NCBI GenBank assembly: GCA_964016885.1
Contig: OZ024741.1
Coordinates: 312,728,001-312,792,000, forward strand
Origin: Eledone cirrhosa
Taxonomy: Eukaryota
Direction: 5' to 3'
DNA: 64,000 nt
The notes under the pieces were generated by a model. It had not been told where the DNA came from, did not search any database, and was given only the letters and a program-made list of their open reading frames with translations. Positions 1,455-63,524 of the stretch are shown one piece after another. Made by a program: the position numbers and the translations under genes. Every line of letters starts with the position of its first letter. Position 1 is the stretch's first letter.

Positions 1455-1503
1455 TAATAATAATAATAATAATAATATTAATAATAATAATAATAATAAT
1501 AAT
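1455..1503. repeat. (TAA)n microsatellite, left edge of the array
   Basis: Directly visible. Confidence 0.95.
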
Positions 1504-1688
1504 TGTTTCTACTTTAGGCACAAGGCCAGCAATTACCCAGTGCATTATTGGTACTTTATTTTATCGACCCCGTAAAGATGAAAGGCAAAGTCAACCTCGG
1601 CGGGATTTGAACTCAGATCGTAAAGGGACGTAACTATGCTGGAAAGCAAGGCGCCCGACCCTCTACCGATACTGCCAATCCACCGGCC
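1503..1688 (-). mobile_element. tRNA-derived SINE, copy 1
   Basis: Minus strand has A box TGGCAGTATCGG, B box GAGTTCAAATCC, central GCCTTTCATC...GGGGTCGATAAAATAAAGTACC and tail GGCCTTGTGCCTAAAGTAGAAACA(ATT)n. Four copies in the window. Confidence 0.9.
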
Positions 1689-1740
<52 letters not shown>

Positions 1741-1746
1741 AATAAA
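1689..1746. repeat. (TAA)n grading into (TAAA)n
   Basis: Directly visible. Confidence 0.95.
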
Positions 1747-4184
1747 CAACAAACAAGAAAGATCAGAGTCCTGGTGGAAGAAACGACTGAATGGTCAAAT
1801 CAGGGAAATGAGAAATGACATTGGAAAGCTTGAGTCCCTACTGAATGGGACACTAAAAAACATAGACACTAAAAATAGACTGGAAATAAAGTACAAAACT
1901 AGGAGGAAAAAGCTAAATATTATCATAGAGGAACTGAAGCAACGCATTGTAGCAAAGAGTGCAAAAATTAGGCGATACGAGAGCAGAGTCAGTCAGTATA
2001 GACAGAACCGCATGTTTGAAAACAACCAGAAGATGCTGTTTGGACAGCTTGAAGGGAAATAAAGAGGCAACAACTTGATCCCTGAGGCGGAACAAACTAA
2101 AACATTCTGGAGAGGAATATGGGAGCAGGATGTTAAACATAATGACCAGGCAGTGTGGATTGAGAGTATACAGAAGGAGATTAGTGAACAGGCACACCAA
2201 CAAACTGATTTGAGTATCACAGTTGAAACTATTAAGGGGCAGGCCAAAAAACTAACCCACTGGATATCACCAGGCCCAGATGGTGTGCAGGGGTATTGGA
2301 TTAAAAATATAACATCCCTCCACCCGAAACTGACAACCAAGTTCAATGACTGCTTCATGTCAGGTGAGGTACCAGAGTGGTTGACAAAAGGTACCACAGT
2401 TCTGATAATGAAAGACCGAATCAAGGGTAATGATGTTACCAACTATAGACCTATCACATGTCTGTCTGTAATGTGGAAACTGTTGACAAGCATTATGTCT
2501 GAAGAAATCTACCATCACCTCCACACAAACAAATTGTTACCGGACGAACAGAAAGGATGCCGAAAGAAGTCCCGTGGTACAAAGGACCAGTTACTTATTG
2601 TAGGGATGGTAATGAGTAATTGCAAGATGAGACACACACGTCTTGCCATGGGATGGATAGACTACAAAAGTATGAAGTCCGGGGAAACAGAGTTAACATC
2701 AGCTGGAGAATCCTTGGGAGGCGTGAAGATCAAGAGAGGTATCTTCCAAGGAGATAGTCTGTTCCCTCTGTTGTTTGTCCTTTATCTGATGCCCCTAATC
2801 AGTATACTGCGAAAAGTGAGAGCAGGATACAAGCTGGGAAAGGGAGTGCTTACCATCATTCACCTCCACTTCATGGGCGATCTTAAGCTTTTCGGGAAGA
2901 GTGAGAAGGAGTTGGATGTGCTTCTTGACACTGTCCGTATTTTCAGCAATGATATATGTATGCAATTTGGTATTAGTAAGTGTGGAGTCATTGTGATGAA
3001 GAGAGGGTAAATTGAGCAGAAGTAACGGAATCCAGGTACCAACAGGTGAGATGATAAAGGAAATTGACACCTAAGAAGGATACAAGCATTTGGGTGTTCT
3101 GGAGGCTGATGACATCAAGAACAAAAAAAATGAAGGAATTGTTAAGAACTGAATACATTCGAAGAATAAGGAGCGTAATAAAGTCACATCTGAACAGTAG
3201 GAATGCCATAAGTGCAGTACATTCCCGAGCTGTGTCTATTATTTGGTACAGTGCGGGAATTCGGAGATGGAATGTTGCTGAACAAAAAGAAATGGATAGG
3301 AAGACTAGGGAGCTATTGACTATCTACAACATGTTCCACAAGAGGAGTGATGTCGATAGACTCTACTTAAGGAGATCTGAAGGTGGAAGAGGTCTTATCA
3401 GCATAGAGGACTGTGTTCAGATGGAGAAAAACAACCTACACAAATACGTGACTGATAGTAAGGAGCCAATGCTCAGAACTGTACTGAAGGAGGGGACAAT
3501 AGGCCAGGGGATGTCCAAGGAGGAATTAACAACAAGGAGGAAGAGCAGCTTTCATGAAATATCCCTTCATTGTACCTTCTTTGAGAAAACTGAATTCAGA
3601 GATCCACAGACATGCAACTGGTTGAAAAGAGGAGACCTTAAAAAGCTACAGAAGGAATGCTAATGGCAGCGCAAGAGCAGGCCCTCAACACGAAGTGGTT
3701 GAAACACCATATTTACAAGGAGGAGGCTAGCCCACAGTGCAGGATCTGTGGAGAGAGAGAGGAGACTGTGGGTACCATTGTATCCGAGTGGAAACACCTA
3801 GCCCAGACTCACTATAAGGGCTGAATACATGATGTGATGGGCAGGATGATCCACTGGCACCTATGCAAAGTAAACAATTTACCACATTCTGAGAAGTGGT
3901 ATGATATAAGCCAGAGTCGGTGATAGAAAACGATCAGATGAAGGTGCTGTGGGATTTTAGGATACAGACGGACAAGAAACTGGAACACAATAGACCTGAC
4001 GTGGTGGTTTTGGACAAGGAAAACAGATCGTGCCTGATTGTGGATGTGGCCTGCACATTCGACACGAGATTACAAGAGAAGGAGAGGGAGAAAATTAACC
4101 GATACCAAGACTTAAAGTGGGAGGTAAAAAGGATTTGGAACTGCCATGAAGTCAAATTGGTCCCGATTGTCATAGGCGCACTAG
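1747..4184 (+). mobile_element. R4/Dong-like non-LTR retrotransposon family A, 5'-truncated, degenerate
   Basis: ORF fragments with SPGPDG, NYRPITCL, GIFQGDSL, FMGDLKL (RT), a degenerate CCHC knuckle and HNRPDVVVLDKENRSCLIVDVAC (RLE). Stops, frameshifts and a ~100-bp deletion near 2670. Confidence 0.9.
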
Positions 4185-4412
4185 GAGGCAGAGGGCGGGA
4201 AATCCTCACGATGGACTCAGCTGATAGTCGGATCCGTTCTACACGCGACAGCAGGTGTTCGACATAAACCCAGAAGTCAGCAATGCTCGGACACTGGACG
4301 ATGCATGCAGGGTGGGTTCATCGACCTGCGTGCATCTCGGACATGCCCGGCTCACGGCAACTCCATGCCTGTAGAGTTTATCCCGAACTGACAAAGCTCC
4401 TCGGTAGTACTG
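4185..4412 (-). mobile_element. Internal Tx1-A ORF2 fragment (zf-RVT region), antisense within Dong-A
   Basis: Reverse complement matches ~27105-27335 (ALPVRDKLYRHG...CPRC...HALVQC region). Confidence 0.85.
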
Positions 4413-5114
4413 AAAGACCGAATCAAGAGTAATGATGTTACCAACTATAAACCTATCCCATGTCTGTCCGTAATGTGGAAACTGTTAACGAGCATTGTGT
4501 CTGAGGAAATCAACCATCACCTCCACATACATGTAACTGGTTAAAAAGAGGAGACCTTAAAAAGGCTACAGAAGGAATGCTAATGGCAGCGCAAGAGCAG
4601 GCCCTCAGAACGAAGTGGATGAAACACCATATTTACAAGGAGGAGCATAAGCCAGAGTCGGTGATAGAAAACGATAAGGTGAAGGTGCTTTTAGGATACA
4701 GACGGACAAGAAACTGGAACACAATAGGCCTGACCTGGTGGTTTTGGACAAGGAAAAAAGATCGCGCCTGATTGTAGATGTAGCCTGCCCATTTGACACG
4801 AGAGTGCAAGAAAAGGGGAGGGAGAAAATTAACCGATACCAGGACATAAAGTGGGAGGTAAAAAGGATTTGGAACTGACATGAGGTGAAGGTCGTCCCGA
4901 TTATCATAGGCACACTAGGTACTAACTCAAAGAGTTTCCAAGGATGGTTAAAGAAGATTAGTCCAGCCCCGCTTTTTGGAACACTTCAAAAGGCATGCTG
5001 GGATCTGCAAGAACCCTCCGATACGTCCTGATTATCTGAGGCTGCAGGTAGTGGGTTGATATTCATTTCAACAAACTTTCCAGTTAAATATCATCAATGA
5101 AAGAGACTCAAAGA
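4411..5114 (+). mobile_element. Multiply deleted Dong-A copy with 3' end
   Basis: Consecutive blocks match 2409-2527, ~3610-3725 and ~3905-4185, followed by the 3' UTR ending gagactcaaaga and a TAA tract. Confidence 0.85.
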
Positions 5115-5150
5115 ATAATGATAATAATAACAATAATAATAATAATAGTA

Positions 5151-5232
5151 AGGTAAAAAGAATTTGGAACTGCCATGAAGTCATTTCAACAAACTTTCCA
5201 GTTAACTAACATCAATGACTGAGACTCAAAGA

Positions 5233-5233
<1 letters not shown>
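5151..5233 (+). mobile_element. Miniature Dong-A remnant between TAA tracts
   Basis: aggtaaaaagaatttggaactgccatgaagtca is fused to tttcaacaaac...gagactcaaagaac at a TCA microhomology. Confidence 0.8.
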
Positions 5234-5269
<36 letters not shown>

Positions 5270-6066
5270 GAAGAAGAAGAATAAGGGAAGAAGACGCACG
5301 TGGTGGATAGAAGGTCATGAAATCGCTCCCGTAAGCTTTTGATTTTTAACATATTTAAATCAATTGTGAAATAACAATTCTTAGTAGAAATGATACATAA
5401 ATCACCATATACAAGTTTCAGAAAAAATTGAATCCAGAATATATTGTTATATCGCTCAAATATTCAATTTTGTATTATACATTTTATATTCAAAAAAGAA
5501 AATGGTTATACATGGAAGAAAACCCCCTCTGTTTACACTAAGTTTTAACAAAATGTTTAATTCCAATATTAAGAAAAATGTGTCAACACATATATTAAAT
5601 ATACGCGACAAACGCATAGATACACATATCAAACAAAACTACAGTCTATTCAACAAAACTCAGTAACGACAACGCCATCACTATAGTCACCGCCGCCACC
5701 AATCCATTCATCATTGCTACCACTATCCCATCACCGCCGCCACCACTCCTTCATTGCTACCACCACTATTCCCCCATTACCTTCTGTTAACTTAAGAAAG
5801 GGGAAGGTGGCGGTATCACTAGACAAGGGAGAGGCTAGCAAAAGATATAAATAGATTGACATAGTGACCCGGCCACCGGCCAAACGTCACGACTATGGCA
5901 CTGCTGGCTCCCCCCTTCCCCACCAACACTATAAAAAGCCCCAGCACCACCACCGACATAGCCAACAACAATAACAGGCAACTTCAGCAAAAAGTATATT
6001 ATATTATTAATACATTCATTCTTAAGCCACGCAATGCTCACGTTAAGGAACCACTCATGATAATAA

Positions 6067-9000
6067 CAATTTAAAAACAACAAAAAAGAAAACCCCATGA
6101 CCAAGAAATACCGGGATGGTGGCCGGCGGGGAATAGCCATGTCTCTATGGGAGGACGACATCTCTAATCTTGGTTGACACTCGTCCTAGAAGTGGTAACA
6201 CGAACAGATTACCCCTTGTCGGATAAGGATAAATCGCGACAAAATAAAGTAAATGTCTAATGATAAAATCTCATACCGGATCGGCCGTCACCCGGTTCAA
6301 AAAGGGCCGCGTCCCTCAGAGAGGAACCAGACTGGGGTCTAAAAATCAGCTAATGGTTCAAACCTTCCCATCACTTCGGAGCTGGAGACCTCCCATGACC
6401 GGAATACTCCTACTGTTGGCCCTCCATGCTCACCACCAAGAAATCCAAAGAAAAAGAGAGAAAAATGGTCAAGGGAAGATAATAAAGAAGTCATTGAGGC
6501 TTTCTACACTGCCATGTACTACCCATCAAATACATCGAATACAGAACAGACATATATCAACTGGAAAAAGAAACAACCCTAAAACAGAGGCTATATTGAC
6601 AGTAACAAACTAGCCAATATACGAAGAAATATTGTAAAAAAAAGTTACTAACTGATATAGAAATTGATCAGATCAAGCTATTAGCACAAAGTCAGCGAAG
6701 GAAAAATTAAACATGTGTCAGTGAAAACGAGGTAAATTGTAACACTTTGAATCCCAGGGTTGGGGTGGAACCACTGGCAACAGAACAAATTAAAGAAAGG
6801 ATCGAAAAAGTGGAGGGAGTGCATACTCAAGATGAAAATCCAAATGAAAACAATGAAACCGTAAATGATAAAGAAATGAATGAGAATGAACTTGCCAACT
6901 TGAAGGATGAAATTATGATCGAATGGATGAAAATGAAAGAATCTGACATGGGGGAACGAGACACCCTCCCTAAGATCCAGAACTCCAAACAGGACCAGGA
7001 GATAATACATAAGACTAACATAATTCTCAAAAACATTATCATCACAAACAAACTAAACATTACTAATTTAAATTATCTCTATTATGCATCGGCTAAAGTC
7101 ACCACTCACTTATGTGGAGTGAAGATGAAATAACAAAGGAATTCCCACAAGAAATCTACTTGGTAAGAGAACATCAATCGCCAAATAAACCTTCTCCGAT
7201 CTGACACAGAAATGTTAACAGACTATAAAGTAGGGGAAGATGTTAAACAAACTAAACTTAGAAAATTGAAAAGAAAGTACAGTATAAAATCAACAAGTGA
7301 CATAGACAGGCTGAGAGAAATAATCAAGCAAAAAGTGTCGTCCAAAGCTGCTCGTATAAGACGCTTTGAAAAACGATCTAGATTCTATAAGGACAATAAT
7401 ATGTTCAAAAACAACCAAAGAAACTTCTACAGAAAAATTGGTAAGTCAACAATAACTGCTAAATCAATACCACCCAAGGAGGAAGTGCAATAATTCTGGG
7501 AAAAGATCTGGGCCGAAGAAAAAGTTCATAACATACATACCCCATGGATAGACAGACAAATGAAAGATACAGCTCACCTTGAGGAACAAATATGGGAAAA
7601 TATAACAGTTGAACAGTTGCGTTTGGCTCTAACAAAAACCAGCAAATGGAAAGCATTTTTTGGATAAAAGCATTTTTTGGATAAATGCCTTCACAGAGTC
7701 TCATGAACTGTTAGCCCAACTTTACAATGAAATAGTTAAGGAGCCAGAAAAGATACCATCATGACTAGTTAACGGCATTACATTCCTGCTTCCGAAGAAT
7801 GATGAGACAAACAATCCCAAAAGTTACAGACCGATAGCTTGATTGACCACAATGTATGAAATGTTAACATCAGTCCTAAATGAATATACATATGACCACC
7901 TGATAACAATTGACCTATTTCCCATTGAGCAGAAAGGGTGTAAACGAGGCTCATATGACTGTAAGGATCAGCTTTTGGTTAACAAAATGATACTGGAATA
8001 TTGTCATAATAGACACAAAAATCTATCGATTGCTTGGATAGATTATAAAAAAGCATTCGATAGTTTGCCACACAGTTGGATTGAAAAATGTTTAGAGATT
8101 TTCAAAATATCTCCCGTTGTCAGGCGGTTTTTCTCATTCAGTATGAAGACATGGAAAACGACATTCCTTTTGAATAGTGAAACAAAATCACTGGAAGCTG
8201 GAGAAGTTAATATTAATTGTGGAATTTTTCAGGGTGACTCTTTATCACCGCTTTTATTCTGCATCGCATTTATACCATTAAGTAAAATGCTCAATGAAAC
8301 AAAACATGGATATAAAGTATATGTCAAAACCATTAATCACTTGTTCTACATGGATGACCTGAAACTATTTGCAAATAATGATGAACAACAAGGGCTATTA
8401 TCCACTGTGGAGCAGTTCAGTGATGGAGTTTGGACAAGATAAATGCGCCAAAGCAACGTTCACCAGAAGAAAGCTGCTGAAATGTTAACACATTAATCTT
8501 GATCGGGGGAATGTGATAAGAGAACTTGATCAAGAAACTTACAACTTGATCAAGAAACTTACAAATATCTAGGTGTTTGTGAAGGAGACGGAATCAAGCA
8601 CTCGACAATGAGGGAAAGGATAAGGAAGGAATGTTACCGCAGAGTAAGAGCAATCTTAAGAACGGAATTGAATGCAAGGAATAGGATCGATGCCATAAAC
8701 ACGCTTGCCATTCCAGTAGTAACCTACAGTTACAATGTCATCAACTGGTCAAGCACAGAGATCCGTAGCAATTGGATTATCTACATATCTAAGGGAATCC
8801 CATGATTGGATGATCAAACTCGTTTTGAAACACGAAAGCATCAAAAGATCATACTCCATTACAAAAGATGCACAAAGATACAGCAATGGACTATAAATTT
8901 CAGAAGTCCCATTTACTGCTGAAATGGAAAACACAGAAAAAGCAAAGCAGGTAAAAGTAACTGCAAAGAAAGAACTGCTACAGATACTGGCTACGAAATG

Positions 9001-9746
9001 GCAAGAAAAGACTCTGCATGGAAAATACCCAGAAAGAGCTAACAATCCTGATGTTGACAAAACTTTAACCCATCAGTGGTTGGCATCCTCTGGACTGAAA
9101 TCGGAGACTGAAGGACTGATTATATCAGCACAAGATCATTGTCTGTCAACAAAAAATTACCAAGCCAACATAATAAAAAATGGATGCAACCTATTATGCC
9201 GTGTATGTAAAAAATAACCAGAGACCATTGATCATATAATTTCAATGTGCAGTCCTATAGCTCCAACCGAATACCTAAACAGGCATGACAGAGCTGCACA
9301 ATACATACATTGGATAATGTGTAAGCATTTTGACCTGCCCCATCAAAAGAATTGGTGGGAGCATCAACCACCTCCCATACTTGAAAAAGATCACATCTCA
9401 ATCTTGTGGAACTTCAGCATCCAAACAGCCCGAAAAATAGAGGCAAATAGACCTGATATAATACTGAAGGACTTTAAAAAGAGGGTATGCCTGATAATTG
9501 ATATGTCCGTTCGAATAGACAAGAATGTATCTATAAAAACATTTGAAAAATTGAGCAAGTATAAGGATCGGGAGATAGCAATTGGAAATATGTGGAAATT
9601 GAGAACTAAAATATACCAGTGGTTGTGGGCGCTATAGGAATAATAACTAAGGGGTCTAATGATTACATTACATGGCGGAACTTGTTGTCTCTTGAGGTTA
9701 CAGGTTGTGATAACTCGTATAAATATAAAGCAGGATAAATGCAACT
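6067..9746 (+). mobile_element. R4/Dong-like family B, near full-length, degenerate
   Basis: ATG at 6260, Myb-like REKWSREDNKEVIEAFY, RT (WIDYKKAFDS, GIFQGDSLSP, YMDDLKL), CRVC..H..C, ANRPDIILKD RLE, 3' end gataaatgcaact(ATA)n. 5' boundary approximate. Confidence 0.9.
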
Positions 9747-9768
9747 ATAATAATAATAATAATAATAA

Positions 9769-9928
9769 TTGTTTCTACTTTTTGGCACAAGGCCAGCAAT
9801 TATCCAGTGTATTACTGGTACTTTATTTTATCGACCTCGGCGGGATTTGAACTCAGATCGTAAAGGGACGTAACTATGCTGGAAAGCATGGTTTCCGACC
9901 CTCTACCGATACTGCCAATCCAACGCCC
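9769..9928 (-). mobile_element. tRNA-derived SINE, copy 2 (internal deletion)
   Basis: Same sequence as 1503-1688 but lacking ~27 bp of the central domain. Flanked by TAA tracts. Confidence 0.9.
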
Positions 9929-9945
9929 TAATAATAATAATAATG

Positions 9946-11547
9946 ATTTCTTTATTGGCCAAAAGGGCTGACATCAAGAAAAATCATTACATACGGCACA
10001 GGACGGGACGATGTGGGTTTTGTGCGTGTAAATATTTTTATTATTTATATAAGAAAAGAAAAAAAGACATATATATATATAAACAATAAAAATGAAAATT
10101 GAAAAATGAAAAATTCCCGAATATGGGGGAAACCTCCGAGGGTTACTCGTGGCGAAAATCACACAAAAGACCACGGCCACCCTGACCATCAGGTCGAGCG
10201 CCCTCTCTCAATTTTTCCATTTCTCAAACTACAGACGTATATTCAGAGCGGTCCCGTTCACTCGTACCATTCTTGCTACATTCACCCACCTTTCAACAAA
10301 CTTGCTAGAAATCAGCAGTTGCCTCTCCACCCTGATTTTCCTCTTCAAGTGAAACTTGAAAAAGTTAATTAGGGATTCGCCGAAGAGGAAAGTGTATGTC
10401 TTTAACCCTTTCAACCTTGTCCACCACACAATCTCTTTCGCCATGGCCACCAGGCAGATGAAAACCGCCTGCCCTTCCTCCTCGAAGGAAGACGGCGAGA
10501 CCATCTGCACAATGGGTCAGTCGATAACCGGATCAGTCCTGCACGCGACAGCAGCTGTTCGACATAGCTCCACAAGTCAGCAATGCTCGGGCACTGAACG
10601 AGTGCGTGCACGAAGGTTTCTTCGCTCTGCGCGCATCTCTGACAGGCTCGGCTAACGGCACTCCCGTGCCTGTAGAGCTTATCTCGAACCGGCAGCGCTC
10701 CCTGGTAGCACTGCCAGGCCAGGGATATTTGGAAGTTATCCATAGGCCCTGGGCTGAAAGTTCTCCGGAAGAGAGCAAACAGCTGATCTTCTTCGACGCC
10801 CAGGATCTCTCCGAGAACGTCGTCGTTCTTCCCCTCCACTAGTCCTCTATAGAACGCCGAGGTGGATGTTCCACCGATACTGGTGCCCAGCTGGCAGAGG
10901 GCAGTGAGCGCCTGGAGACATTCCAGTTTCCAAGCGCTATCCCTCGGTCTTTATCTGACCCAGGGCTGCAGCTCCGTCAATGAGACCAGCTGTGGGAAAA
11001 CGTACCTGGCGAACGGCGACCACACCGGTCAAGGAAGCACCAGAGATGTCGCGGCCTCAGCGCATGTTTGCGCATCATCAGCCATGGCATGCCCAATCCT
11101 CCACGCAAGGGGTGCTGACAGCAGATGGAATGTCTGACCATGGGAGCGCGTCCCTTCCACAAAAAAGCGGAAGAGGAAGCGCTCCATTTTGGTGAGAGTT
11201 GGGCCGGTGAGGCGGTAGCAGATGACGGATGCGATGTACGCATTCGCCAATTCCTCCCGCCCTTTCAGGGAGAGCTTCCTCTCGGCCCATTTCTGGGTGA
11301 GGGAGGCCACCTTGTTCGTCACCTCGTTCCACTTTTTCTCCATCTGGAGATCCGGTCCGAACCAGACCCCGAGCAATTTAACTGGTCCGTCCGTCCAACG
11401 CCCCACGATGCTGTCGGACGGCATGGACTTGCCTCTCCAGGTGCCGAGCTGCAAGCCCACCGAGTTTTCCTGGTTTATCTTTGCTCCTGTCACCACTTCC
11501 TATTCCTTGAGAGCGGTTCCGAGCAACTGGACGTGTCTGGTGCTCGA
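9946..11547 (-). mobile_element. Tx1-B retrotransposon, 5'-truncated
   Basis: RT C-terminal half (KINQENSVG, KLLGVWFG), LPVRDKL..C..C..H...C zf-RVT, 3' UTR ending ttggccaataaagaaatc(ATT)n. Confidence 0.9.
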
Positions 11548-11552
11548 TTTAA

Positions 11553-11722
11553 TTATTGGCCACAATATGCTGACATCAATAAAAAACATTACAGACGGCA
11601 CACGACGGCGCAGGATGGTACGATGAGGGTTTTGTGCGTGTAAATATTTTTATTAATTATTAAAGAAAAGAAAAAAAGACATAGAAACATATATATATAT
11701 ATAAACAATAAAAATGAAAATT
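11553..11722 (-). mobile_element. Tx1-B 3' UTR fragment
   Basis: Near copy of 9952-10100. Confidence 0.85.
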
Positions 11723-11844
11723 TGTGGTTAATAAAGAATTTTAATTTATTTTACACCTTTCTGTCCTTTATGACCTTTTTACACGGCCAAAACACACTTT
11801 GTATCATCCTGTGTCGTCTGTAATATTTTTCTTCGTGTTAGCGC

Positions 11845-12337
11845 CGAGGAGGAAGGGCAGGCGGTTTTCATCTGCCTGGTGGCCACGGCGAAAGAGATTG
11901 TGTGGTGGACAAGATTGAAAGGGTTAAAGACAGGCACTTTCCTCTTCGGCGAATCCCTGATTAACTTTTTCAAGTTTCACTTGAAGAGGAAAATCAGGGT
12001 GAAGAGGCAAGTGCTGTCTTCTAGCAAGTTTGTTGAAAGGTGGGTGAATGTAGCGAGAATAGTCCGAGTGAACGGGACCGCTCTGAACATACGCTTGTAG
12101 TTTGAGGAATGGGAAAAATTGAGAGTGGGCGCCTGCCCTGGTGGTCAGGGTGGCCATGGATTTTGTGTGGTTTTCATATATATATATGTTTCTATGTATT
12201 TTTTCTTTTTCGTTTCTTATATAAATAATAAAAATCTTTACACTCACAACACCCACATCGTACCGTCCTGTACCGTCCTGTGACGTCTGTAATGTTTTTT
12301 TTTTTTATGTCATTCTTTGTGGCCAATAAAGAAATCA
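11845..12337 (+). mobile_element. Tx1-B 3' end
   Basis: KEIVWWTRLKGLKT...NGTALNIRL* followed by 3' UTR and tgtggccaataaagaaatc(ATT)n. Confidence 0.9.
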
Positions 12338-12353
12338 TTATTATTATTATTAT

Positions 12354-15300: not shown

Positions 15301-15898
15301 TTCATTTCCCACTGGCTCGTTTGCCTGACATACTCCACTCTCCATTTCCAACCTAATCTCTCTGCTCAGTTCCTCCAGTTCCAACTCGCTTATCCATCCA
15401 TTAGTTCTTATTACCCGAGCCTGCCGGGCCAATTTTTGTTCATCTAATTTAAATAGACCAATCTCGTTCCAGATGTTATGCATCTCTTTCCTATAGCCTT
15501 TTTCTATGGAGTTACTTATCAGGTAACATTCCATGACAGTTCTATTCAATTCTTTCGTCCAGTTGGTTCTTGCCCCTTTCCTTCATCTTCTTCCTCCTCC
15601 AACACCAGCAGTATTTGGATGACAGCCAGGTCCCTGTTGCTGGGCCAGGGAGCACTTGCTCGGTGAGAGTATTTCACATGACGTTCCAGTCTCCTTTTCA
15701 CCGTTATTCGAACTGGTTAGGTTCGACATTTAAACACACATATCGAGGATTGGTGAATGTATGGTTACATAACCACCGGTGATTGTAGCGTGGCACCATC
15801 ACGCTGTAGACGAACATAAATAAATAAACAAATAAATAAATAAAAACATGAAAAAAATAAACATAAATTTCATTGTAATGTGTGAATGTCTGACTTAG

Positions 15899-15900
<2 letters not shown>
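12354..15900 (-). mobile_element. Dong-A, apparently full-length but degenerate
   Basis: Myb-like RTNWTKELNRTVMECY at the N terminus, RT, CCHC and RLE fragments, 3' UTR to gaggctcaaagaac(AAT)n. Bounded by TTA tracts at both ends. Confidence 0.9.

Positions 15901-15957
<57 letters not shown>
15900..15957. repeat. (TTA)n microsatellite
   Basis: Directly visible. Confidence 0.95.
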
Positions 15958-15958
<1 letters not shown>

Positions 15959-16143
15959 AGCTGCATTTATCTTGCTTTATGTTCATACGAGTTATCACCA
16001 AGTCACAACCAGTGACCTCAAGAGACAACAAGGTCCGCCATGTTCAAGAAAGAACATACATACTCACACATGCATCTTTAGGTGTTTAGACTTGTGATGT
16101 ACATATATTGACAGAATCTTCCTTAGTATATCGGCAGTTCCCA

Positions 16144-16145
<2 letters not shown>
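15958..16145 (-). mobile_element. Dong-B short 3' fragment, unit 1
   Basis: Last codons (MGTADILRKILSI) plus 3' UTR, between TTA tracts. Confidence 0.9.
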
Positions 16146-49016: not shown

Positions 49017-49188
49017 TCCATGTCTGTGGATCTCTAAATTCAGTTTTCTCAAAGAAGGTACTATGAAGGGATTTTCCCTTAAGGCTGCTCTTCCTCCTTG
49101 ATGTTATTTCCTCCTTGGACATCCCCTTGCCTACTGTCCCCTCCTTCAGTACAGTTCTGAGCATTGGCTCCTTACTATAGGTCACGTA

Positions 49189-49189
<1 letters not shown>
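49014..49189 (-). mobile_element. Dong-A internal fragment
   Basis: Matches 41000-41175. Confidence 0.9.
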
Positions 49190-49238
<49 letters not shown>

Positions 49239-51847: not shown

Positions 51848-54800
51848 CAGTGGTCGCCAACATGGGTTCCGCGGAACCTTGGGGTTCCGTAAAACAAACT
51901 CCGGGTTCCTTTAAAAAATAAATATTTACATTACCATTAATATTTTGGGTTTTCTGAAAAAGGTGCAAAGAAAAGGGGCAATGTATAAATGAACAAGTAC
52001 TATTGTAGTGTAGACAGGTTCTCCACTCCAATTCGTGGAAAACACTACTTTCAGTTTCTCACTTGAATTAACAGAAAAACACTGTTCTGAGATTTGTGGA
52101 AATTGAATACTTTCAATTTCACATCAATTCTTGGAAAGACATAGTTTTCTGAATTCCGAGAATTTGACTACTACTGATAATACACTAATTGAACTTAGAA
52201 ATTGACCAATCACGAACAAGTAAATGTTGGTCGATGACAGCATAACTTTAAACTGAAAACTTCAGTTCAGCGAGGTCTCTCAGCCAAGAGACAGGGTCAG
52301 TTCGCTGTTCTCACAACGTAAGTTCAGTAGAATGTTTTCAATAGAGAACACGTTTTAATCTGCTGCCCTAACAAAAGCTTTGAAGTCGTCTCAAGTTTCC
52401 TCACTGAGTGAACTCGCTTACTAGTCGTTTTCAACATGCATCCAGTTCCACAGACAATTCTAAATAAGAACACGTTACATTCTGTTGTACTTTGCACAGA
52501 AAATATAACGCCTGTAAAGTTTCGACTACTAACAAAGGTAATTTTGTATTCCATGCAGACACTATAAACTTTGCCACACAATTATGTATTCATTTGATGG
52601 CATCTGCATTCACAATTGAGAAATTACTTTATACAATAAATATATATGTCCACAAACATTTGACTAAACTTTATTTGTTCCAATCTAATATATGTTTAAC
52701 GCAGCCTAAAGCCTTCTTATATTATATCTAACTTTCAGTCAAAATAGATAGAAGATATCTGAATTAATTTCCAATACCATCGTCACATCTACACTATCAG
52801 CTGATTTGCATTTTTTGTACCTTTTAGTATGGCGGATATTTATTATATTTACATTACCAATAATATTTTATACGACCCTAAAGTAGTATATGCAGGAAGT
52901 GCTGGACTCTGAAAAAAATTTCTTATAGTTGTTCATAAATTTGCACCTTTTTCAGTAACCCCTAATATTTTAATATTAATATAAGACTTTAAATAATATG
53001 TTTGCCATCCTAAAATGGAGAAATTTCAATTTTTTAAAATTAAAATATTTTTTTAACTAGTTAAGTTTTTCCAAATATCTAAAATTAAAGTTAATTTAAG
53101 TACTTTTTGTAATTAAAAAAACTGTTAATTTCTCTTGTTTATTAATGTCATATTAAAAATGTTAACTGTAGATAAATAACATTGATATGATGTCTACTGC
53201 AAAGAAGCTGAAGTTAGATACCAGCAGTAAGGTTAGACAGTGGTGTGATGATTATGTTAGATATGGATTTCAAAAAGCTGACACTAAAAAAGATACACGA
53301 GATCAGCCCATGTGTTTGCTATGTTCAAAAGTTCTATGAAATAGCTGTTTAAATCCTGCAAAACTTAAAAGACACATTGATACTAATCACACTAATGATA
53401 AAAACAAGTCACTGGAATACTTTACTTCGCTGAAAAACAACATTAAAAATTCACAAGCTAATATGTATGACTTGTTTTGTAAAAAGTCAGATAGAAATAA
53501 AGCTTTAACAAGAACATCTTTTGAGATTTCACATTTGATTGGTAAAAACAAGAAACCATTTACATTAGGAGAACAGTTAATTCTGCCAGAGAATCCTTCT
53601 TTTTGAAAGCTGCAGTATTAAGGACAAAGAAAAATTAAGCCAGTTATCATTGTCAGCAAATACCGTAAAAAGAGGGATAATTGATGTTTCTTCTGATATA
53701 GAAAATCAGATACTAACTGCACTAAAGAAAAGCCCATGTTTTGGACTGCAAGTGGACGAAACTACGAATATTGATAACAAGGCTCAATTAATTTGCTATG
53801 TACGGTTTGTAGACCTTGATAAAAAAGAATTAGTAGAAGAGTATTTGTTTTGTCTGGCATTAGACATCACAACTAAAGGTCAAGATATATTCAATAAAAT
53901 TGAAGAGTATTTTTTTTTAAATGGTGTATCTTGGAGCAAGTTGACTTCAATAACAACAGATGGAGCGGGCTGCAATGACTGGTAAAAATGCTGGTTTGAT
54001 TGCAAAAATTAAAGAACAGACCCCAAATTGTATTTCAAATCCTTGTATGATTCATCGAGAGGTTTTGTGTTAAAAAAAATTCAAAGACAGAGATGCTCAA
54101 ATATTAAATGACCAGCTGAAAGACATTGTCAAAATTATCAATTTGATCCATGCAAGAGCAAAAAATTCTAGAATGTTTGAATCTATTTGTGAATCTTCTG
54201 GAAGTAATTATAATAGATTGTTATTGAACAATGATGTGCGTTGGCTGCCTTTTGGGGATGCTATGAAGAGAGTTTTTGAACTGAGAGAAGATATAATAGT
54301 TTTTCTAAAAAAACAGAATGATGAAAGAGCAAGTGTATTAGAAACCAATGAATGGAATGTGCAACTCGCTTATTTAGTAGACATTTTTGGTGAACTGAAC
54401 AAACTAAATAAGTGTCTTCAGGGTAACAATGCATATATTTTTACTTCAATCAATTTTATTACATATTTTCAATTAAAATTAAACATCTTTATAAAAAGAA
54501 TTGAATCGGACAATTACTTTCAAACCTTGAACAAAGCTTAAAAAGAGAGAAAATGTTGACTCCAGCAATCTAAAGAAGATCATTCTTTCTCATTTAAATG
54601 TGCTTTCCACAGGTTTTTCAGATTATTTTGACTTGATGGAAAAAGATATTGCGAGCAGAAATTTATAGATAAAAATCCCGTTCACCGAGATCGAGCAGTT
54701 AGTGTCAGAAAATGACGCTGGAAATTGTAAAAATTTACTACCTGCCCAATGCTTACATCAGTTGATGGATTTGAATTCAAACGAAGACCTGAAAGTGATA

Positions 54801-55204
54801 TTCGAAAGCAGAAAGAAAGAACTATGGATTGACTTATTCTTGATTGGGGAGTTTAATGAAATCAGCCAACTTGCATTGAAGTATTTGACTTTATTCCCAT
54901 CTATTTGTGCGAAAAATGGTTTTCGCAGTTGGTGGAAATCTGCACAAAGAAGAGGAATAAACTGTCAGCAATTGACGAGTGTATGAGACTGGCATTACCT
55001 AGTGTTGAACCTCGATTTTCTAAACACACTGATGAGGCGCAGCAGCAGAAAAGCCATTGTGTTCGATTACATACAGACACATGAAACACTAAAATAAATA
55101 AATACTTTATTATTTTTTTTGAAAGGTTTTGTACTGTATAGGTTCCGTGAAGAATTCAAAATATTTAGTGGGTTCCTCTGTTTTAGAAAGGTTGGCGACC
55201 ACTG
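51848..55204 (+). mobile_element. hAT DNA transposon, Buster/Charlie type, complete (3357 bp)
   Basis: Perfect 14-bp TIRs CAGTGGTCGCCAAC / GTTGGCGACCACTG. 8-bp TSD ATCTAGAT at 51840-51847 and 55205-55212 (nnnTAnnn). Subterminal GGTTCC repeats at both ends. Confidence 0.97.
53187..55065 (+). pseudogene. hAT (ZBED5/Buster-like) transposase, disrupted
   Basis: BED finger (RQWCDDYVRYGF..CLLC..KLKRHIDTNH), LQVDETT, TTDGA, CMIHRE, VRWL, LAYLVDIF, C-terminal CE..FS motif. Multiple stops and frameshifts; end coordinate approximate. Confidence 0.9.
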
Positions 55205-58200
55205 ATCTAGATCATATATAGACAGGATCTTCATTGGGAAAATATATAGAAATAGTGTAGGCTGCCCACTTTTTAAAACGGTCGCCTATTCAGATTACAA
55301 ATTTGTGATCTGTATGGTCGACCTAGATAAAACGCGTAGGTTGGGACCGGGTTACTGGAAGCTGAACATGCCATTTCCGGCACGTAATGCTTACAGGGAC
55401 CGAGTCAACAGTTTAGTTAATCAAAAGTTGAGAGGGGAGATCATCAACAACAGAGGGTGGGGGCTCTCAAAAGAGAGATTAGAGTAACTTCGATAGAGTT
55501 CAGTAAAGAACTAGCGTTAGAGAAAAATAGAAAGGAGTGGAAGCTGGTAGATAAGTTAGACGAGGCTATTTGTAGTGGCATTGCAACTGACGTGCTAGCG
55601 GCGAGAATGGCATTAGACAATTTCTTCAATGCGAAACACGAAGGTTGTATTGTCAGAGCTAAGGCGCGTACGCTGAGAAACGAGGGAACCAAGGTTGTTC
55701 GATGGGCCCGCGTGGCGGAGGCGCACCGTGGTAATAAAACCAAAATTCGGTCTTTGGCGGTCCGAGACGGACACGAGATAAGCGATTCCAAGCGGATGTG
55801 TGAGGCCTTTCGCCAGCACTTTTCTCGGTTGTTCGGGGAGAGTGACGGGTCAGAGAGAGTAGCGGATTTCAGTCCCTACCCTGACGGCTTGCCGCGCATC
55901 TCGACGGTCGACGCTGAGCACTGCGAAAGGCCAATTACTTCAGCCGAAATTCAGGACGCACTTGTCGGCTGCATGAGGTGCAATTCATCCGGTTTGGATG
56001 GCCTGCCCTACGAGTTTTACGTAAATATGCCAGACTTGTTCTCCGATCTCCTCGAAGCGCTCTACTGCAAATGGCAGCAGAATGGGAGTATTCCCATTTC
56101 TGCGAGAAGGGGAATGGTGACGCTGATAAGTAAAGACGACAACAGGAGGGATACATTAGACAACTTCAGGCCCATAACTCTGCTCAACCCAGAGTTTAAG
56201 ATTTTGGCCAAGGTGTTAACAAAGAGATTGTCGTCGAGGATTTGGTTGGGAAGGCGCAAAATTGCGCAATCCGAGCCAGGTCCATACACGACAATCTCCA
56301 CCTCATGCGATACATCATAGAGAGGGTAGAGTGTAAACCTGGGTTCGGTGGGGCACTGATCAATTTAGATCAATCAAAAGCATTCGATAGGGTCGACCAT
56401 CGGTATCTGGAGGCTGTCCTCAAAGCGTCTGGCTTCGGCCCTATCTTCAGAAGCTGGATCGCTGCAATGGACAGCGGCACATACTCGGTGGTCAAGGTTA
56501 ATGGCCACCTCCCGGAACAATTTCCGCACTCCCGATCGGTCCGTCAAGAGTGCCCTCTCTCTTCCCTTCTGTACTGATTGACTGTCGAACCTTTACTGCG
56601 GAATCTGGAGCTGTTGCAGGGCATCCCGCTCGAACCGGGACGTGGAAGGCCTGTGTCGGCTTATGCGGACGACATCACCATGATGGTGTCGGACACCTAA
56701 GATATCGAGGTGGTCGGCAACTTATTGGAGGAATATGAACGGTCGACGGGAGCAAAACTTCACCCGGAAAAGTCGGTGGGCTTGCAACTCAGCACCTAGA
56801 GAGGCAAGTCCATGCCACCCAAAGGCATCGCTGGGCGCTGGACGGACGGACCGGTAAAGTTGCTCGTGGTTTGGTTCGGGCCAGACCTCCAGGTGGATAA
56901 GAATTGGGACGAGGTAACGAGCAGAGTAGCCAGTCTCATCAATAAATGGGCTGCGAGGAAGCTATCACTGAAAGGTCGCGCGGAGATGGCGAATGCGTAC
57001 ATCGCGTCCGTCATCTACTATCGCCTGACCATCGTGCCTTGACCCCGTCCACGCCTCTTCAAGTTGGAACGGCTCCTCTTCAAATTCTTTTGGAGGAGTC
57101 AATTCCGTTGGTGAGGCGGTCCATCTGCTGTCAGCACCCTATACGCGGAGGGCTGGGCATGCCAAGGCTAATGATGCGCAGACATGCGCTGAGGCTGCGA
57201 CATCTACAGATATTCTGCCTAAACTGTGAACGGGTGTGGTCGACGTTTATCAGACGGGCCTTTCCGTAGCTCGTTTCTTTGACTGAACTGCAGTCCTGTG
57301 TCAAGAAGAGACCGAGACTGGGTGAGTGGCACCTGGAATGTTGCCAGGCACTCACTGCCCTCTACCAAGCGGGCAATGCGATCAGTGGAACTTCTACTCT
57401 CGAGTTCTATAGAGGATTAGTAGTGGGAAAAGTGCGATGAACCACTCGGAGAAGCTTTGGGCCTCGACGAAGTCGAACTGACCAGTCTGTACCGGAGGAC
57501 TTTCGAGCCGGGGACGATGGACAATTTCCAGAAATCCCTCGCTTGGCAGTGCTACCGAGGGGTGGGGGGCACTGCCGGTTCGGTATAAACTCTACAGGCA
57601 CGGAAGTCCTGTCAGACGCATCTGCCCAAGATGCGCACAGAGCGACGAAACCGTTCTGCACGCACTTGTCCAAAGTCCGTGCATTACTGACTTGTGGATT
57701 TATGTCGAACAGCTACTGTCGCGTGTGGAACGGATCCGGCTATCGACCGAGTCCATAGTGAAGATCAACTCGCCACCTTCCTTAGGTCAGGAACAGCAGG
57801 CATATTCCTCAGTCTGGTGGCCGTTGCGAAAGATGTTATATGGTGGACCAGATTGAAAGGACTAAAGACAGACACTTTTCTCTTCGGCCAATCCCTCATC
57901 AACTTCTTCAAGTTTCACCTGGAAAGGAAGGTGAAGGTGGAGAGAGATGTGCTGCCCCCCATTACATTTGCTAAAAGGTGGATGAATGTGGCGAGAATGG
58001 CACGTGTGAATGGGCCTACTCTGACCATGCGTCTATAGGCTAGCTAACTTGAGGAGAGGGGTGCTCTCCCTGGGTGCACTAGAAGCGCAGGGTGGTTCAG
58101 GATTGGTGGGGTACCTAAGTCACCCCTGGGTCGTCCACCCCCTATAGGAGAATTTATTTTGTTATATTTATGCATAGTTTATTTTATATTTTTTTATATC

Positions 58201-58351
58201 TTCATTGTTGAATTGGTCTTGCCATTCTGCACTTTTACTCGACCTTATTGTAAACCCCCACGGTCCCTGTCTTTGTATTGTCCCTAGATGTCGGCCCTTG
58301 TGGCCAATAAATGAAAACATTATTATTATTATTATTAATATTATTATTATT

Positions 58352-61300
58352 GTTTTTATTTTCTCTCATTATTATTTCTGAGATATATGCCGAGTGTCTT
58401 CCCGACACCTAGAGCAAATAAATTCACAGTGTAAGCCAATTAATACATCACATTGATTATAATTAATGAAAAAAACAAAACACAAAAAAAAACAGTATAC
58501 ATATATACTCATGTGCATATGCATATGTAAATACAAGGAGGGATATCAATCTTACAGAGATCGTGTTCTTCTCAATACGTGTGCAGTCCCAGTCAAAACA
58601 ATTTTTTGCACCTCGTGCAGAGAGGGCAAACCAGGAATCATTCGCAAATATTGTTCTGTTCCTTTCTTGATCATACCCAGTCCTCTCACAATCACTGGTA
58701 TTGTAACGGTCTTGAGGTGCCACATTTTCTCAATTTCAATAAGCAGATCTTTATATTTTCGTAGCTTGTCAAACTCTTATGCCGCGATATTGTGATCACA
58801 TGGGATGTTATAGCTATCAACAAACACACATTGTTATGTTGATCTTTTATAATGATGTCAGCTCTATTTGCTTTTATGGTCCTGTCAGTATGTACAGGAA
58901 AGTCCAAGAGAATTGTTACTTTTTCTCCTTCAGTTACAGCCTCAGGGTAATGGTTGTACCACTTGTTTTCAGCTTTGATTTTGTAATGCCGACATATTAC
59001 CCAGTGTAGATATTGGCCAACTCTGTCATGTCTATATTTGTATTCTACTGGTGCTAAAACATTACATCCAGAGACTAAGTGATCTACTGTTTCAACCCCA
59101 GCATTGCAGAATCGGCACTTTGGGTTTATTCCGTTTCTCATCACACTGGCCTGGTAATTACGAGTCAATAAGCTTTGATATTGGGCAGCTAAGATGAAGC
59201 CTTCACTCTCCGCCTTTAGCCCTAAACTACGAAGCCACTGATGGGTGTGCATTTGGTCAACATCAGCTTGTTTGCTACGGGCCACATATTTGCCATGCAG
59301 AGGTTTCTGCTCCTAATTTGATGCTAATTGTCTTTGCCCTTTTGCTTTTGCCAGTCATTTTATGTACCTAGCAGCATCAGTTGCATCAGTTTCTTTAGTC
59401 TGTCCAGCCTGGGTATCAAGCATGAGATCAGTAGCACATTTGTTGCTCTCCTTCAAGATAGAATGAAGCTTATTACTTCTCTCATGCTTTTCAACAAGTT
59501 TCAGCATACAGTCGTTAGTTGTTTCAAGTTATTTGGCCAGTCCAATGATGGTGGTCTTGTAAGCAAGTTCAAATTGGATCAGGCCACGGCCTCCATGAGT
59601 TCTAGGAAGGTAAAGACGATCCACATCTGCTTTTGGGTGGTGCATCCTATTACAGGTCAGTAGCTTACGGACTTTGGTGTCAATTCTTTTTATTTCACTC
59701 ATATTCCATTTCAACACACCGAAGCTATAAGTGACAACTGGGACTGCCAAGGAATTTATGGCTAGGATCTTGTTACGAGCGTTTAGTTCTGATCTCAGAA
59801 CTGCACGTACTCTCCTGTAACATTCTTTCCGTATCCTCTCTTTCATACTTGCATGCTGTATGCCAGAGCCTTCATTAATCCCTAAGTATTTATAGGTTTT
59901 TTCCTGCTCAAGTTCCTTAATGATTGTCTCAGCATCCAATTCAACTGTGTCTGAGTTGACAAGCTTTCCCTTCTTGAAAGTGGCTTTCGCACACTTGTCA
60001 AGTCCAAACTCCATCCTGATGTTATCGCTAAATGTTTTAACTGTCCGCAAAATGACTTCCAGTCGTCATTATCTTTGCAATATAGCTTCAAATCATCCAT
60101 ATAAAATAATTGACTTATTTTTTTGGTGTCAATTCTATAACCTACCCCGTTCTATTAAGCTCGGATGTAAGGGGTATTAAAGCTATGCAGAAAAGCAAGG
60201 GTGAAAGTGAGTCACGCTGGAATATACGACAGTTGATGTTTATATTCCTAGAGCACAGTACCCCAGTGGAATGAGACAATTGGAGATTTGTGTTCCATAA
60301 TGACATATTGTGCTGCAGGAAGTTTGAGATCACAGGTGAGATTTTGAAGTTGTCCAGTGATTTCAGAATCCATGCGTGTGGTATGCTGTCAAAGGCTTTT
60401 TTATAATCGATCCATGCAGAACTGATATTTCTGTGTTTATTATCACAGCTCTCAAGGATCATACGATTAATCAAAAGTTGATCTTTGCAACCATATGTAC
60501 CTCGTCGTCACCCTTTTTGTTCAATGGGGAAAATGATTGTTCTCCAAAAACACGTATGCTTTTTCCACGAGAAGAGAGGTTAATAGTTTATAAGTGGTGG
60601 ACAAGCATGTTATGGGCCGATAGTTTTTTGGATATTTGGTTTCGTTGTTCTTTGGTAGAAGGTAGGTAATGCCACTTGCTATCCAATCAGGTCTATTTTT
60701 TGGATCTTTCATAATTCCATTAAACAGCTTGACCAATATATTGTGAGTGCACGGGAGTGAGGAAAGCCTGAAATTTGGCACCCTGTTGCTATCAGGATAT
60801 TTCCATTTATGAGATTTATTGAGTGCTGTCCTTAAGTCCGCTATAGAGATGTCTTCCCACGCCTGTTCTTCTAAATTTGTGTAGGATTTTTCCAGGCGAC
60901 TAATCAGATTCTACATTAGTATTATATGTCTTCTCATCACTCCAAATCTTGCTCCAGAAGTTTTCAACTTCTTCCCTACTTCTCTATAAAATGACTTGGC
61001 ATTGGATGAGAACAACTTATTTGGCCTGTAGAAGTTGTTTCGCTTCTCTAATCTACGAATTCGTTGGGCTTTTACTTGGACTTTTTGTTTCAGAGATTAT
61101 TTTGTTGAAACTATTGCTTCTCTAGAAGATAGTCCATATTTTCTCTGTAGCTTTCTTACCTTATTGGATCTTATATCATTTCCAGTGGTTAACTCGCCCA
61201 ATAAAGATATTTCTTCTCTCATTACGTCAATTTCCTTTTCGATTCTACTCCTCCAATTTGGTTTACCTCGAATGTTCGACATTTTTTGGGTTTTTTTGGT

Positions 61301-62278
61301 GGTAAACAACTTGTTTCAATTACTCTAGCAGATGCATAAATGATTTCATTTAGCTCAGTAAGATCAGGTTCTAATTCTTCTATGATTTCTTTTGTCATAT
61401 AATTACCAATCATTATTTGTTTTCTATTTTGGATTGTATTTGGGAGTTTTTGAAGTGGTTCTCTATCATTTATATTAGAACGTCTTACTACTGCAAGCTC
61501 ATTCAGTATTTTTTGCTTTAATTCCTTCATAGTCTCCCTGTGTTCTTCAGCAGATGTTTGGTTTTCAATTACTGTTTCTAAGTCCCTCTCCTGGCTATTT
61601 TCAGCAGGTTCAATAGAGCTTCTCATTTCTACAAACCTATTTGTGATTTGGTCAGATGGAGGTCTTTCAGTAAAGACTTGTGACTGGTTACTATCTCCAG
61701 GAGATTCTTCAGTTCTTTCATCATTTATATTTATGTCATTCTCCATAGCCTGCTTGATAGCAGTTAGTTCAGTCTCTGTGAGTCTATTATTTCTGAAGAT
61801 ATACCTCCTTACATTTGCCAACTTATTTCCCTCCATATCACGTCTGCTAGCCTGATTCCGAGTTTTCCAGCTTTTGTAAGTGTGTCTGTCTTGTGATGGC
61901 TTACCTAATGCATAGTAATATGCATATATTACTCCTTTATACTCTTCTCGGGTCCATTTCATCCTTTTAGCTTTTTCTCTTTGGGGTAGTTTCGGTGGTG
62001 GATCTGGAGGGCTCGAGTTGGGGCAATCCCCGATCAAGTGACCATCCAGGTCCATAATTGGAGAAGAGTTTGTGCCAAAGAAGGACTTTTCGATCTCAGG
62101 TTGGCACCTTCCTGAGGGACGCGCTTCCTGATTAACCATAGGAAAAGCGACATGGTATTGTGTATTAATTTTTATTTGTTCATCTCGCAGTACATGCTTG
62201 CGTTATACATGGTATTGGACGTACATGGAAAGTTGCCCGGCTCTTTGGGTCGTGCATTTGCTGGCTGGCACTGAGATC
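58352..62278 (-). mobile_element. R4/Dong-like family C, apparently full-length, degenerate
   Basis: ATG at 62139, Myb-like KRMKWTREEYKGVIYAYY, RT (WIDYKKAFDSIPH, YMDDLKL), CRFC..HLVSGC, ANRADIIIKD RLE. TTA remnants at both ends. Confidence 0.9.
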
Positions 62279-63524
62279 ATTATTACTATTATATCAGTAT
62301 AGTTATGGTCATTGCTGTTGTTGATTGAGGTGATATTGTTATGGTTGCAGCTGTAAGAGGTGTACGAGAATTTTCTCAACTGTTCTTGTGGTTTGAGTGG
62401 TATTGGTGGTGATAGCAGGGAGATTAAAGCTGGGGTTGGGGTCCTGGGAGTGGTGGTGGGTAGGGTGACATTGTAGTTTATAGAGTTTGCTTCTCCGGTG
62501 TTATTTTCTCTCTATTTTGAGTTTGAGGTGTAAATGGGGGGGGGGGGGCTAGTATTCTTTTTTTCTTCCCCTTTGTTCTGTCCTTTGTGTGGGCTCCATA
62601 CAATATATAAATATACATTCACACGTGCATACTTATACACACGTATGTATATGCACACATATATATATACCCACACATTAGACACTGAGAAGGGAGGTAG
62701 GTAGCAGTCAGTGACAGTAGTCTAAAAATAGATTGGGGATTTACTGGTGTGAATGTGTCAGGAAGTGGTTGTGAATGTGGTGGTGGGAGAGAGAAGTGAT
62801 CGTTCAACTGTCCATTTTCCTTTCAAAATCTGAAATTTAGCCACAATAGACCGAAATGTGAAAAAAAAAAAATTGTATTGGGGAAATATTTAAAAATATT
62901 CCACATCTTCAGCCACAAGGATGATTGTATAATAATTAGTCGGATTTTTTTTATTAAACAGAACTTATCCCCGATATAAACTGTGTTTTCCGGTCTATGT
63001 CTGTTTATTTTCTTCAAATAATATGTAAACAGCGATTGTAATGGGTAAATATATAAAAATATTTATACAGTTCTCACAACTAGCGTCGTAGAGAAGTGTT
63101 GAAATAATTTGTCGGGTTTTCGTGTTAGGGAATACCACATTAAACAAAACTTACTCCCCTAAATAGGCACGACTGTTTCTCTTCTTCAAATAGTTTTTGA
63201 GCGAACGTCTGTATATCTGCATGTTTGTTTTGTGTACATTTTTCGTTGTTTATAATACATGTATATGTAATATAATAAATAGAGTTTGTTACTTACATAT
63301 ATCGTTTTCTATTTGTTTTGATTTAAAATTATGAGTAGTGGTGCGGCTGATATTCAGTTTCTTTATTTACACACGATCCGTGTACAACATTTATTTTTTG
63401 TAGATTTCTTTGGTTATGTTTCCACTTCGTTTTCTTAGTGTTTTTATTATTGATTTGTCGATGGTGTTCGATTTATTTCAAATCTTGTGGGGAGCTTCGT
63501 TATGGGCGTCCATGATGGGCGTCC

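Follow-up and report, generated by a model that had tools for sequence, protein, structure and literature searches.

Background

Among long interspersed elements (LINEs), Dong is known to target TAA, a snail family included (PMC3812793), and in Bombyx mori Dong the TAA lies on the sense side, as in a published 5′-junction primer (PMC3774820); an HDV-like ribozyme at the 5′ end is a further trait of the Dong/R4 clade (PMC3774820). Microsatellite-specific elements of the Tx1 group have also been described, namely Kibi in (TC)n, Koshi in (TTC)n, and crocodilian families in (TTCC)n or (TTTC)n (PMC4494074). TRAS1 and SART1 of B. mori insert in opposite directions into one simple repeat; their endonucleases read 10–12 bp, TRAS1 nicks T^A, and an endonuclease swap in the silkworm exchanges the specificities of the two elements (PMC7265360). 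Keno, which carries an apurinic-like endonuclease (APE), and Utopia, which carries a restriction-like endonuclease (RLE), converged on one site in genes for U2 small nuclear RNA (PMC4640811). In the portions consulted, papers on octopus repeats mention Dong-R4 and L1-Tx1 but give no target for them (PMC13282606, PMC8967140, PMC9115989), and PMC4758252 and PMC3747384 likewise have nothing to contribute on this point; in octopus annotations both groups are abundant and recently active (PMC13282606, PMC8967140). Here we describe a stretch of 64,000 nucleotides from Eledone cirrhosa (contig OZ024741.1, positions 312,728,001 to 312,792,000; hereafter the window), in which Tx1-like and Dong-like elements lie antiparallel in tracts of one microsatellite, (TAA)n on one strand and (ATT)n on the other, together with the corresponding junctions across the assembly.

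The Tx1-like elements of E. cirrhosa resemble Kibi and Koshi in being APE LINEs of the L1/Tx1 kind that occupy a microsatellite, named by its pyrimidine-rich strand (the published repeat names are assumed to denote the sense strand). They differ in that their targets are (ATT)n and (ATCT)n, that they belong to a mollusc and number thousands of copies, and that they have their target in common with an RLE element. The Dong-like elements agree with Dong of B. mori, DongAg and DongBg of the R4 clade in their protein, which combines reverse transcriptase (RT), CCHC motif and RLE, and in sense-strand TAA, but form three divergent families in one genome that are interleaved with APE elements. As in the TRAS1/SART1 pair, two LINEs insert into one simple repeat in opposite directions; however, TRAS1 and SART1 are both APE elements of a telomeric repeat, whereas here one partner is of the RLE type and a microsatellite scattered through the genome serves as the repeat. 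Keno and Utopia likewise combine an APE and an RLE element on a common target, but they use the same site with the same 3′ flank and are not antiparallel, and the portions consulted mention no arrays common to the two.

An earlier note on this DNA, made from the sequence alone, knew of no description of ATT-specific Tx1 families that share sites with Dong. No report of an ATT- or ATCT-specific Tx1 element was found in the literature covered, which did not extend to Repbase, nor in PMC4494074 to Fig. 3 and the supplement; that figure lists the repeats used by additional Tx1 families, and TAA/ATT may already be among them. The ATT target thus appears to be new for Tx1-like elements, but microsatellite targeting itself is known, and the concept of a shared target has precedents in TRAS1/SART1 and Keno/Utopia. 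Each ingredient is precedented and nothing is overturned; (ATT)n and (ATCT)n are added to the targets of APE-type site-specific LINEs, and the clustering of Dong and L1-Tx1 into gene-sized blocks, in which TAA/TTA tracts are often element junctions, is accounted for.

Junctions of Tx1-like and Dong-like elements across the genome

Genome-wide counts are exact-pattern matches over the 3.0-Gb assembly; junction samples are best matches outside the window and favour copies resembling those of the window. The head of Tx1-A occurs 1728 times, preceded by ATTATT in 1651 cases and by AATAA plus 0–2 bases in none. Since these heads follow ATTATT nearly always and the opposite strand never, ATT is supported as the Tx1 target, not merely its tail. 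At least three T-rich units preceded the head in 29/29 sampled copies of Tx1-A, 25/29 of Tx1-B, 28/29 of Tx1-C, and 11 of the 18 Tx1-D copies in which a head was found (11 more were headless), and an A-rich head flank was found in none of the sampled copies of the four types. Full-length copies start with G directly after (ATT)n and end with C directly before (ATT)n, in one phase in all four heads. Tract length and upstream neighbour vary between copies, and the junction rules are also seen in dispersed copies on many contigs. Tx1 tails, counted with a loose pattern, number 16466, of which 11739 are followed by exact ATTATT and only 2 by A8. By eye, no target-site duplication of unique flank was found for Tx1 among 70 stretches, about 40 of them with a tail, even at 3′ tracts of 1–3 units; in the truncated copy L078, an 8-bp duplication is possible.

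Dong-A and Dong-B have TAA on their sense strand. TAATAA follows 3524 of the 3722 Dong-B tails and TTATTA none; in the samples, 28/29 Dong-B heads and 24 of the 27 Dong-A tails with the end present have A-rich flanks. The earlier note's expectations that Tx1 copies would not have non-ATT 5′ flanks genome-wide, and that orientation relative to the repeat strand would not be random, were thus both borne out by these counts. Two further details concern the Dong junctions: (GAA)n is often found between the TAA tract and the head of Dong-B, and one Dong-A copy (L024) stops early in a poly(A) run that is followed by TAA repeats.

Several observations weigh against a strict targeting rule. Even after removal of 1876 tails of an ATCT/TC family, only 80% of the Tx1 tails are followed by ATTATT, and 33 of the 16466 tails enter the opposite strand, in 17 cases with a single ATT in between. 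Among twelve truncated Tx1-A copies, the 5′ junction showed a clear ATT tract in six, a partial one in one and none in five (L071 and L083, which have internal deletions, and L068, L079 and L085, which keep the head, are excluded from this count). Compared with the 95% of full-length copies, this suggests that part of the 5′ ATT of Tx1 could derive from a read-through RNA leader. At the 5′ flanks of Dong-A and Dong-C, the TAA tract is often short or absent, and these flanks often adjoin a reversed head of a short interspersed element (SINE); the short or absent TAA may reflect deletion of target.

Organisation of the array in the window

In the 64-kb window, a tract scan detected 24 TAA/TTA tracts of at least four units, 7 reading TAA on the plus strand (1455–9943) and 17 reading TTA (12338–58337). 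The 50-kb flanks on either side contain 2 and 3 such tracts, and ten samples of 10 kb each, placed at arbitrary round coordinates, gave 2 per 100 kb; tracts cover 0.03% of arbitrary sequence. With natural element copies as references, the window was annotated as follows.

1403–1450, plus: Tx1-D-type 3′ end at the left array edge; polarity flips in the following tract
1455–1502, plus: (TAA)7 and (TAA)8 tract
1504–1688, minus: tRNA-type SINE with ATT tail; A/B-box-like motifs judged by eye
1744–5235, plus: Dong-A, 5′-truncated and rearranged, with a minus-strand Tx1-A fragment (4186–4412) and a duplicated 3′ end (5181–5235)
5285–9747, plus: Dong-B, near full length, flanked by a TAA tract at either end
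9770–9928, minus: SINE
9946–11722, minus: two 5′-truncated Tx1-B copies; the flipped block ends near 11722 on its right
11858–12336, plus: Tx1-B-type copy, 5′-truncated
12353–15900, minus: Dong-A without about 200 bases of its head
15958–21538, minus: four tandem Dong-B pieces (15958–16152, 16180–16373, 16397–19442, 19489–21538), a TTA tract behind each
21572–22381, minus: Dong-A, 5′-truncated
22418–27850, plus: Tx1-A from head to tail, ORF1 with internal deletion, (ATT)n on both sides
27898–28077, plus: SINE between two TTA tracts
28110–33875, plus: Tx1-B, full length, degraded
33931–38558, plus: Tx1-C with internal deletions; own head and ORF1, Tx1-A-type ORF2
38575–38703, minus: Dong-B 3′ fragment
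38721–40201, minus: Dong-A, 5′-truncated, containing a tract-less minus-strand SINE (39821–39994)
40226–43389, minus: Dong-A with an open frame of 961 codons (40503–43388) containing RT, CCHC and then the RLE motif
43453–49016, plus: Tx1-A; APE at 45649–46476, RT and zf-RVT at 47443–49101; 3′ end lost
49014–49189, minus: internal Dong-A fragment fused to the broken Tx1-A end, presumably through a deletion
49236–58319, plus: Tx1-D without about 70 bases of its head, split by a DNA transposon
51848–55204, no strand assigned: hAT-like DNA transposon with inverted ends and the 8-bp duplication ATCTAGAT
58377–62900, minus: Dong-C; 5′ region extends past 62900, exact head not fixed
63521–64000, plus: Tx1-B, 5′-truncated, runs past the window

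Between 11858 and 64000, all 11 Dong pieces are on the minus strand and all 7 Tx1 pieces on the plus strand, in agreement with the strict polarity claimed for 11.8–62.3 kb. In the block 1455–11722 everything is flipped (three Dong pieces plus, three Tx1 pieces and two SINEs minus, TAA on the plus strand). Since this block is flipped as a unit, the polarity rule holds relative to the repeat strand; a single inversion is the likely cause. Two exceptions were noted: the minus-strand SINE at 39821–39994, which has no tract and lies within Dong-A, and, at about 1400–1450, the Tx1-D-type tail, which is on the plus strand, yet enters TAA after one ATT unit. Scrambled junctions occur at 4186–4645, where a Tx1-A fragment and reshuffled Dong-A pieces lie within one Dong-A copy, and at 11547–11858, a patchwork of Tx1 3′ untranslated region where the flipped block ends on its right. 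At 15923–16583, three Dong-B units of 218–221 bp, 95–96% alike, are arranged in tandem. The array had been thought to end at 62290; it in fact starts at about 1400 and reaches some 10.1 kb beyond the window on the right, about 73 kb in total, its right side comprising the 5′ part of Dong-C beyond 62900, Tx1-B from 63521, and two further Tx1-A copies.

Arrays elsewhere in the assembly

The window is a large example of such an array, not a unique locus. Over the initial 42.4 Mb of contig C1, a Tx1 tail is at most 20 kb away from 28 of the 35 Dong-B tails (random expectation, 6%), 27 of these pairs being on opposite strands and one on the same strand; consecutive Tx1 tails at most 20 kb apart are on the same strand in 39/43 cases. 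One cluster, at 37.10–37.21 Mb, contains ten minus-strand Tx1 tails and five plus-strand Dong-B tails. The sampled heads bear out the proposal that the elements insert into each other's tracts: 65 of 87 Tx1 heads adjoin another array element, 64 of them in the predicted orientation (upstream neighbours: Tx1, 31; same-strand SINE, 17; opposite Dong, 16; opposite SINE, 1; other, 22), as do 23 of 29 Dong-B heads, all 23 oriented as predicted (Dong, 12; opposite Tx1, 9; opposite SINE, 2; other, 6). Regular spacing was observed at two places: six Dong-B heads recur every 4.9 kb at 353.616–353.641 Mb of C2, the contig of the window, and six identical Tx1 tails of opposite polarity lie about 34 kb apart at 94.66–94.83 Mb of C4, the latter likely representing one segmental repeat.

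Identity of the elements

The second open reading frame (ORF2) of the Tx1-like elements codes for an N-terminal APE (PF03372, E = 7e-14), an RT (PF00078, 8e-17) and a C-terminal CCHC motif within zf-RVT (PF13966, 4e-8); among proteins of solved structure, the endonuclease is best matched by those of L1, though weakly (E = 1e-5). A separate ORF1 with a zinc knuckle is characteristic of the Tx1 clade, and one CX2CX4HX4C knuckle is present in ORF1 of all four head types; preference for a target sequence, another feature of this clade, is apparent from the head-flank counts. The ORF2 sequences of Tx1-A and Tx1-C are 92–94% alike, the heads and ORF1 differing, and those of Tx1-B and Tx1-D are about 77–80% and 70–74% like that of Tx1-A, respectively. 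Because Tx1-C has its ORF2 in common with Tx1-A, the four independent families assumed in the earlier note reduce, as judged from these sequences, to three ORF2 lineages with four heads.

Dong-B has a frame of 1112 codons. CCHC and RPD..D..K motifs occur in Dong-A and Dong-B and are degenerate in the Dong-C copy of the window, and the RT is nearer to R2 (E = 3e-28) than to L1 (1e-14). A long frame with RT, CCHC, a PD..D..K restriction-like endonuclease and no APE corresponds to the Dong/R4 type, as does sense-strand TAA, which was found at both ends of Dong-B and at the 3′ end of Dong-A and is weaker at the 5′ ends of Dong-A and Dong-C. Homologue and cluster searches with these proteins brought up no named Tx1 or Dong reference, only unnamed or generically named proteins; "Tx1-like" is thus the supported label, and assignment to the Tx1 and Dong clades is suggested by architecture together with target. 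Among relatives with a name, those nearest to the window proteins come from Argonauta hians (67% identity) and from Octopus sinensis; the Tx1-A body was matched by contigs with four other organism labels in a comparison from which repeats were masked out. A relative in Patella caerulea (P0161) is present as a cluster of 11 proteins whose locus tags are adjacent, which hints at a tandem array that is target-specific.

The SINE as a passenger

The SINE had been counted among the elements specific for the repeat. This does not hold, as only 4 of 29 copies sampled outside the window have a 5′ tract; instead of a tract at both junctions, unique sequence is duplicated, with target duplications of 9–29 bp in 21/29 copies, 17 of which begin at ATTAT. 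The SINE likely primes by pairing of its AUU tail, hence its Tx1 polarity within tracts, and its tail likely seeds later Tx1 insertions. Because 25 of the 29 copies carry an ATT tail outside tracts, such a tail is not by itself enough to restrict an element to them. By eye, the last 30 bases of the SINE (1504–1533) resemble the Tx1 3′ end (33845–33875; CCTTGTG...AGAAA..ATTATT). Mobilisation by these Tx1 elements was nevertheless disfavoured, since the SINE duplicates 9–19 bp of unique sequence and Tx1 does not; an RTE-type partner seems likelier.

A sister family in (ATCT)n

Among 20 Tx1 tails preselected for lack of a following ATTATT, 8 had a variant GGCT tail with (ATCT)n or (TC)n. This class, which includes the (TC)n-tailed variant and of which copies on C1 were examined, has 1876 exact matches in the assembly, and its 3′ end is nearly the same as that of the ATT families. 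ATCT was found at the 5′ junction of 3/4 truncated copies, and long tracts of ATCT precede two full-length heads, in one case with intervening TC repeats; several of these six copies were picked as tandem pairs, which biases them toward an ATCT junction. In an RT tree based on a 272-residue piece and at most four copies per family, drawn from 36 qualifying copies, the sister family is nested in the ATT group as sister to Tx1-D (91/95, not starred), and the same clade contains an Argonauta protein. The endonuclease domains of ATT and ATCT families are about 56–62% identical overall. Two copies of the sister family have WSNRSGTSRSY or WANSSGTSRSY as the sequence of the hairpin loop, as against the usual WTNR(I/M)GSSRSY of the ATT families; on the basis of these sequences it may be hypothesised that this loop sets the target. 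The pair of related endonucleases makes the origin of sequence specificity in APE testable by loop swaps.

Strand choice, array growth and alternative explanations

In target-primed reverse transcription (TPRT), synthesis is primed by the strand antisense to the element. Given TPRT and flanks derived from the target, the A-rich strand thus serves as primer for Tx1 and the T-rich strand for Dong. The opposite orientation of Tx1 and Dong probably arises because each enzyme first nicks a different strand, though pairing of the RNA tail may contribute; choice by the enzyme is favoured over RNA pairing because of the SINE, which acts as a control, the state of truncated copies, and the exchange of specificities between TRAS1 and SART1. 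The sister family, with nearly the same 3′ end but another target and another loop, also speaks for this reading. The Tx1 nick would lie at AAT^AAT, a TpA step, its phase being ambiguous by one base. Specificity would reside mainly in the endonuclease, and pairing of an AUU-ending RNA with the primer would fix the register. Each insertion would divide one tract into two, both of which slippage could lengthen; targets would multiply beside existing elements, so that arrays of 70–110 kb could grow. SINE tails and SINE target duplications would provide new short seed tracts, and deletions, tandem duplications and one likely inversion (1455–11722) would have come afterwards.

Strand choice could instead lie in the RNA, if the Tx1 endonuclease were loose or cut both strands, the (AUU)n end of the RNA primed only on AAT-3′OH, and a read-through leader supplied the 5′ tract or annealed to it. 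Priming of this kind is indicated by the SINE, with its duplications starting at ATTAT; AATAAA is located 6–9 bases before the first ATT, so that transcripts would be cleaved within the repeats, and A8 tails are nearly absent; and truncated copies retain a 5′ tract only about half the time. Moreover, annealing of repeat-like RNA to the target improves the accuracy of SART1 (PMC7265360). However, the SINE carries the ATT tail and yet lies outside tracts in most copies, and leaderless truncated copies still have the repeat on their 5′ side in 6–7/12 cases for ATT and 3/4 for ATCT, far above its cover of arbitrary sequence. We therefore regard this explanation as unlikely.

Tandem duplication and unequal exchange of a few insertions could in principle produce an array, as illustrated by the three tandem Dong-B units at 15923–16583 and the six evenly spaced Dong-B heads on C2. 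As the main source it is very improbable and already largely refuted: neighbours come from different families, copies of one family are divergent (the two Tx1-A copies of the window are 93% alike, the Dong-A copies 85–92%) and differ in their 5′ truncation points, and dispersed copies on many contigs obey the same junction rules. That Tx1 lacks target specificity altogether, ATT being only its tail into which Dong inserts, is scarcely credible. Dong does adjoin Tx1 ends (9/29 Dong-B heads), and 5/12 truncated Tx1-A copies have no 5′ tract, but ATTATT precedes the great majority of full-length heads, with tract length and upstream neighbour varying by copy.

Beyond strand choice by the nicking enzyme, a broader history can be proposed tentatively, at somewhat less than even chances: a radiation of octopod Tx1-like elements may have divided microsatellites among its members by retuning of the endonuclease, its ATT lineages building self-extending antiparallel arrays together with Dong on all parts of the chromosomes. 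As part of the same proposal, and no more firmly, three lineages would read the A-rich (TAA)n strand, and the nested sister family would have moved to (ATCT)n via changes at the loop tip. If true, this would constitute an undescribed antiparallel partnership of APE and RLE elements, and a natural minimal pair of APE domains reading a 3-bp and a 4-bp repeat.

Other features

The hAT-like DNA transposon at 51848–55204 is outside the repeat-targeting system. A second copy, 96–97% alike and internally deleted, is located about 35 kb to the left of the window.

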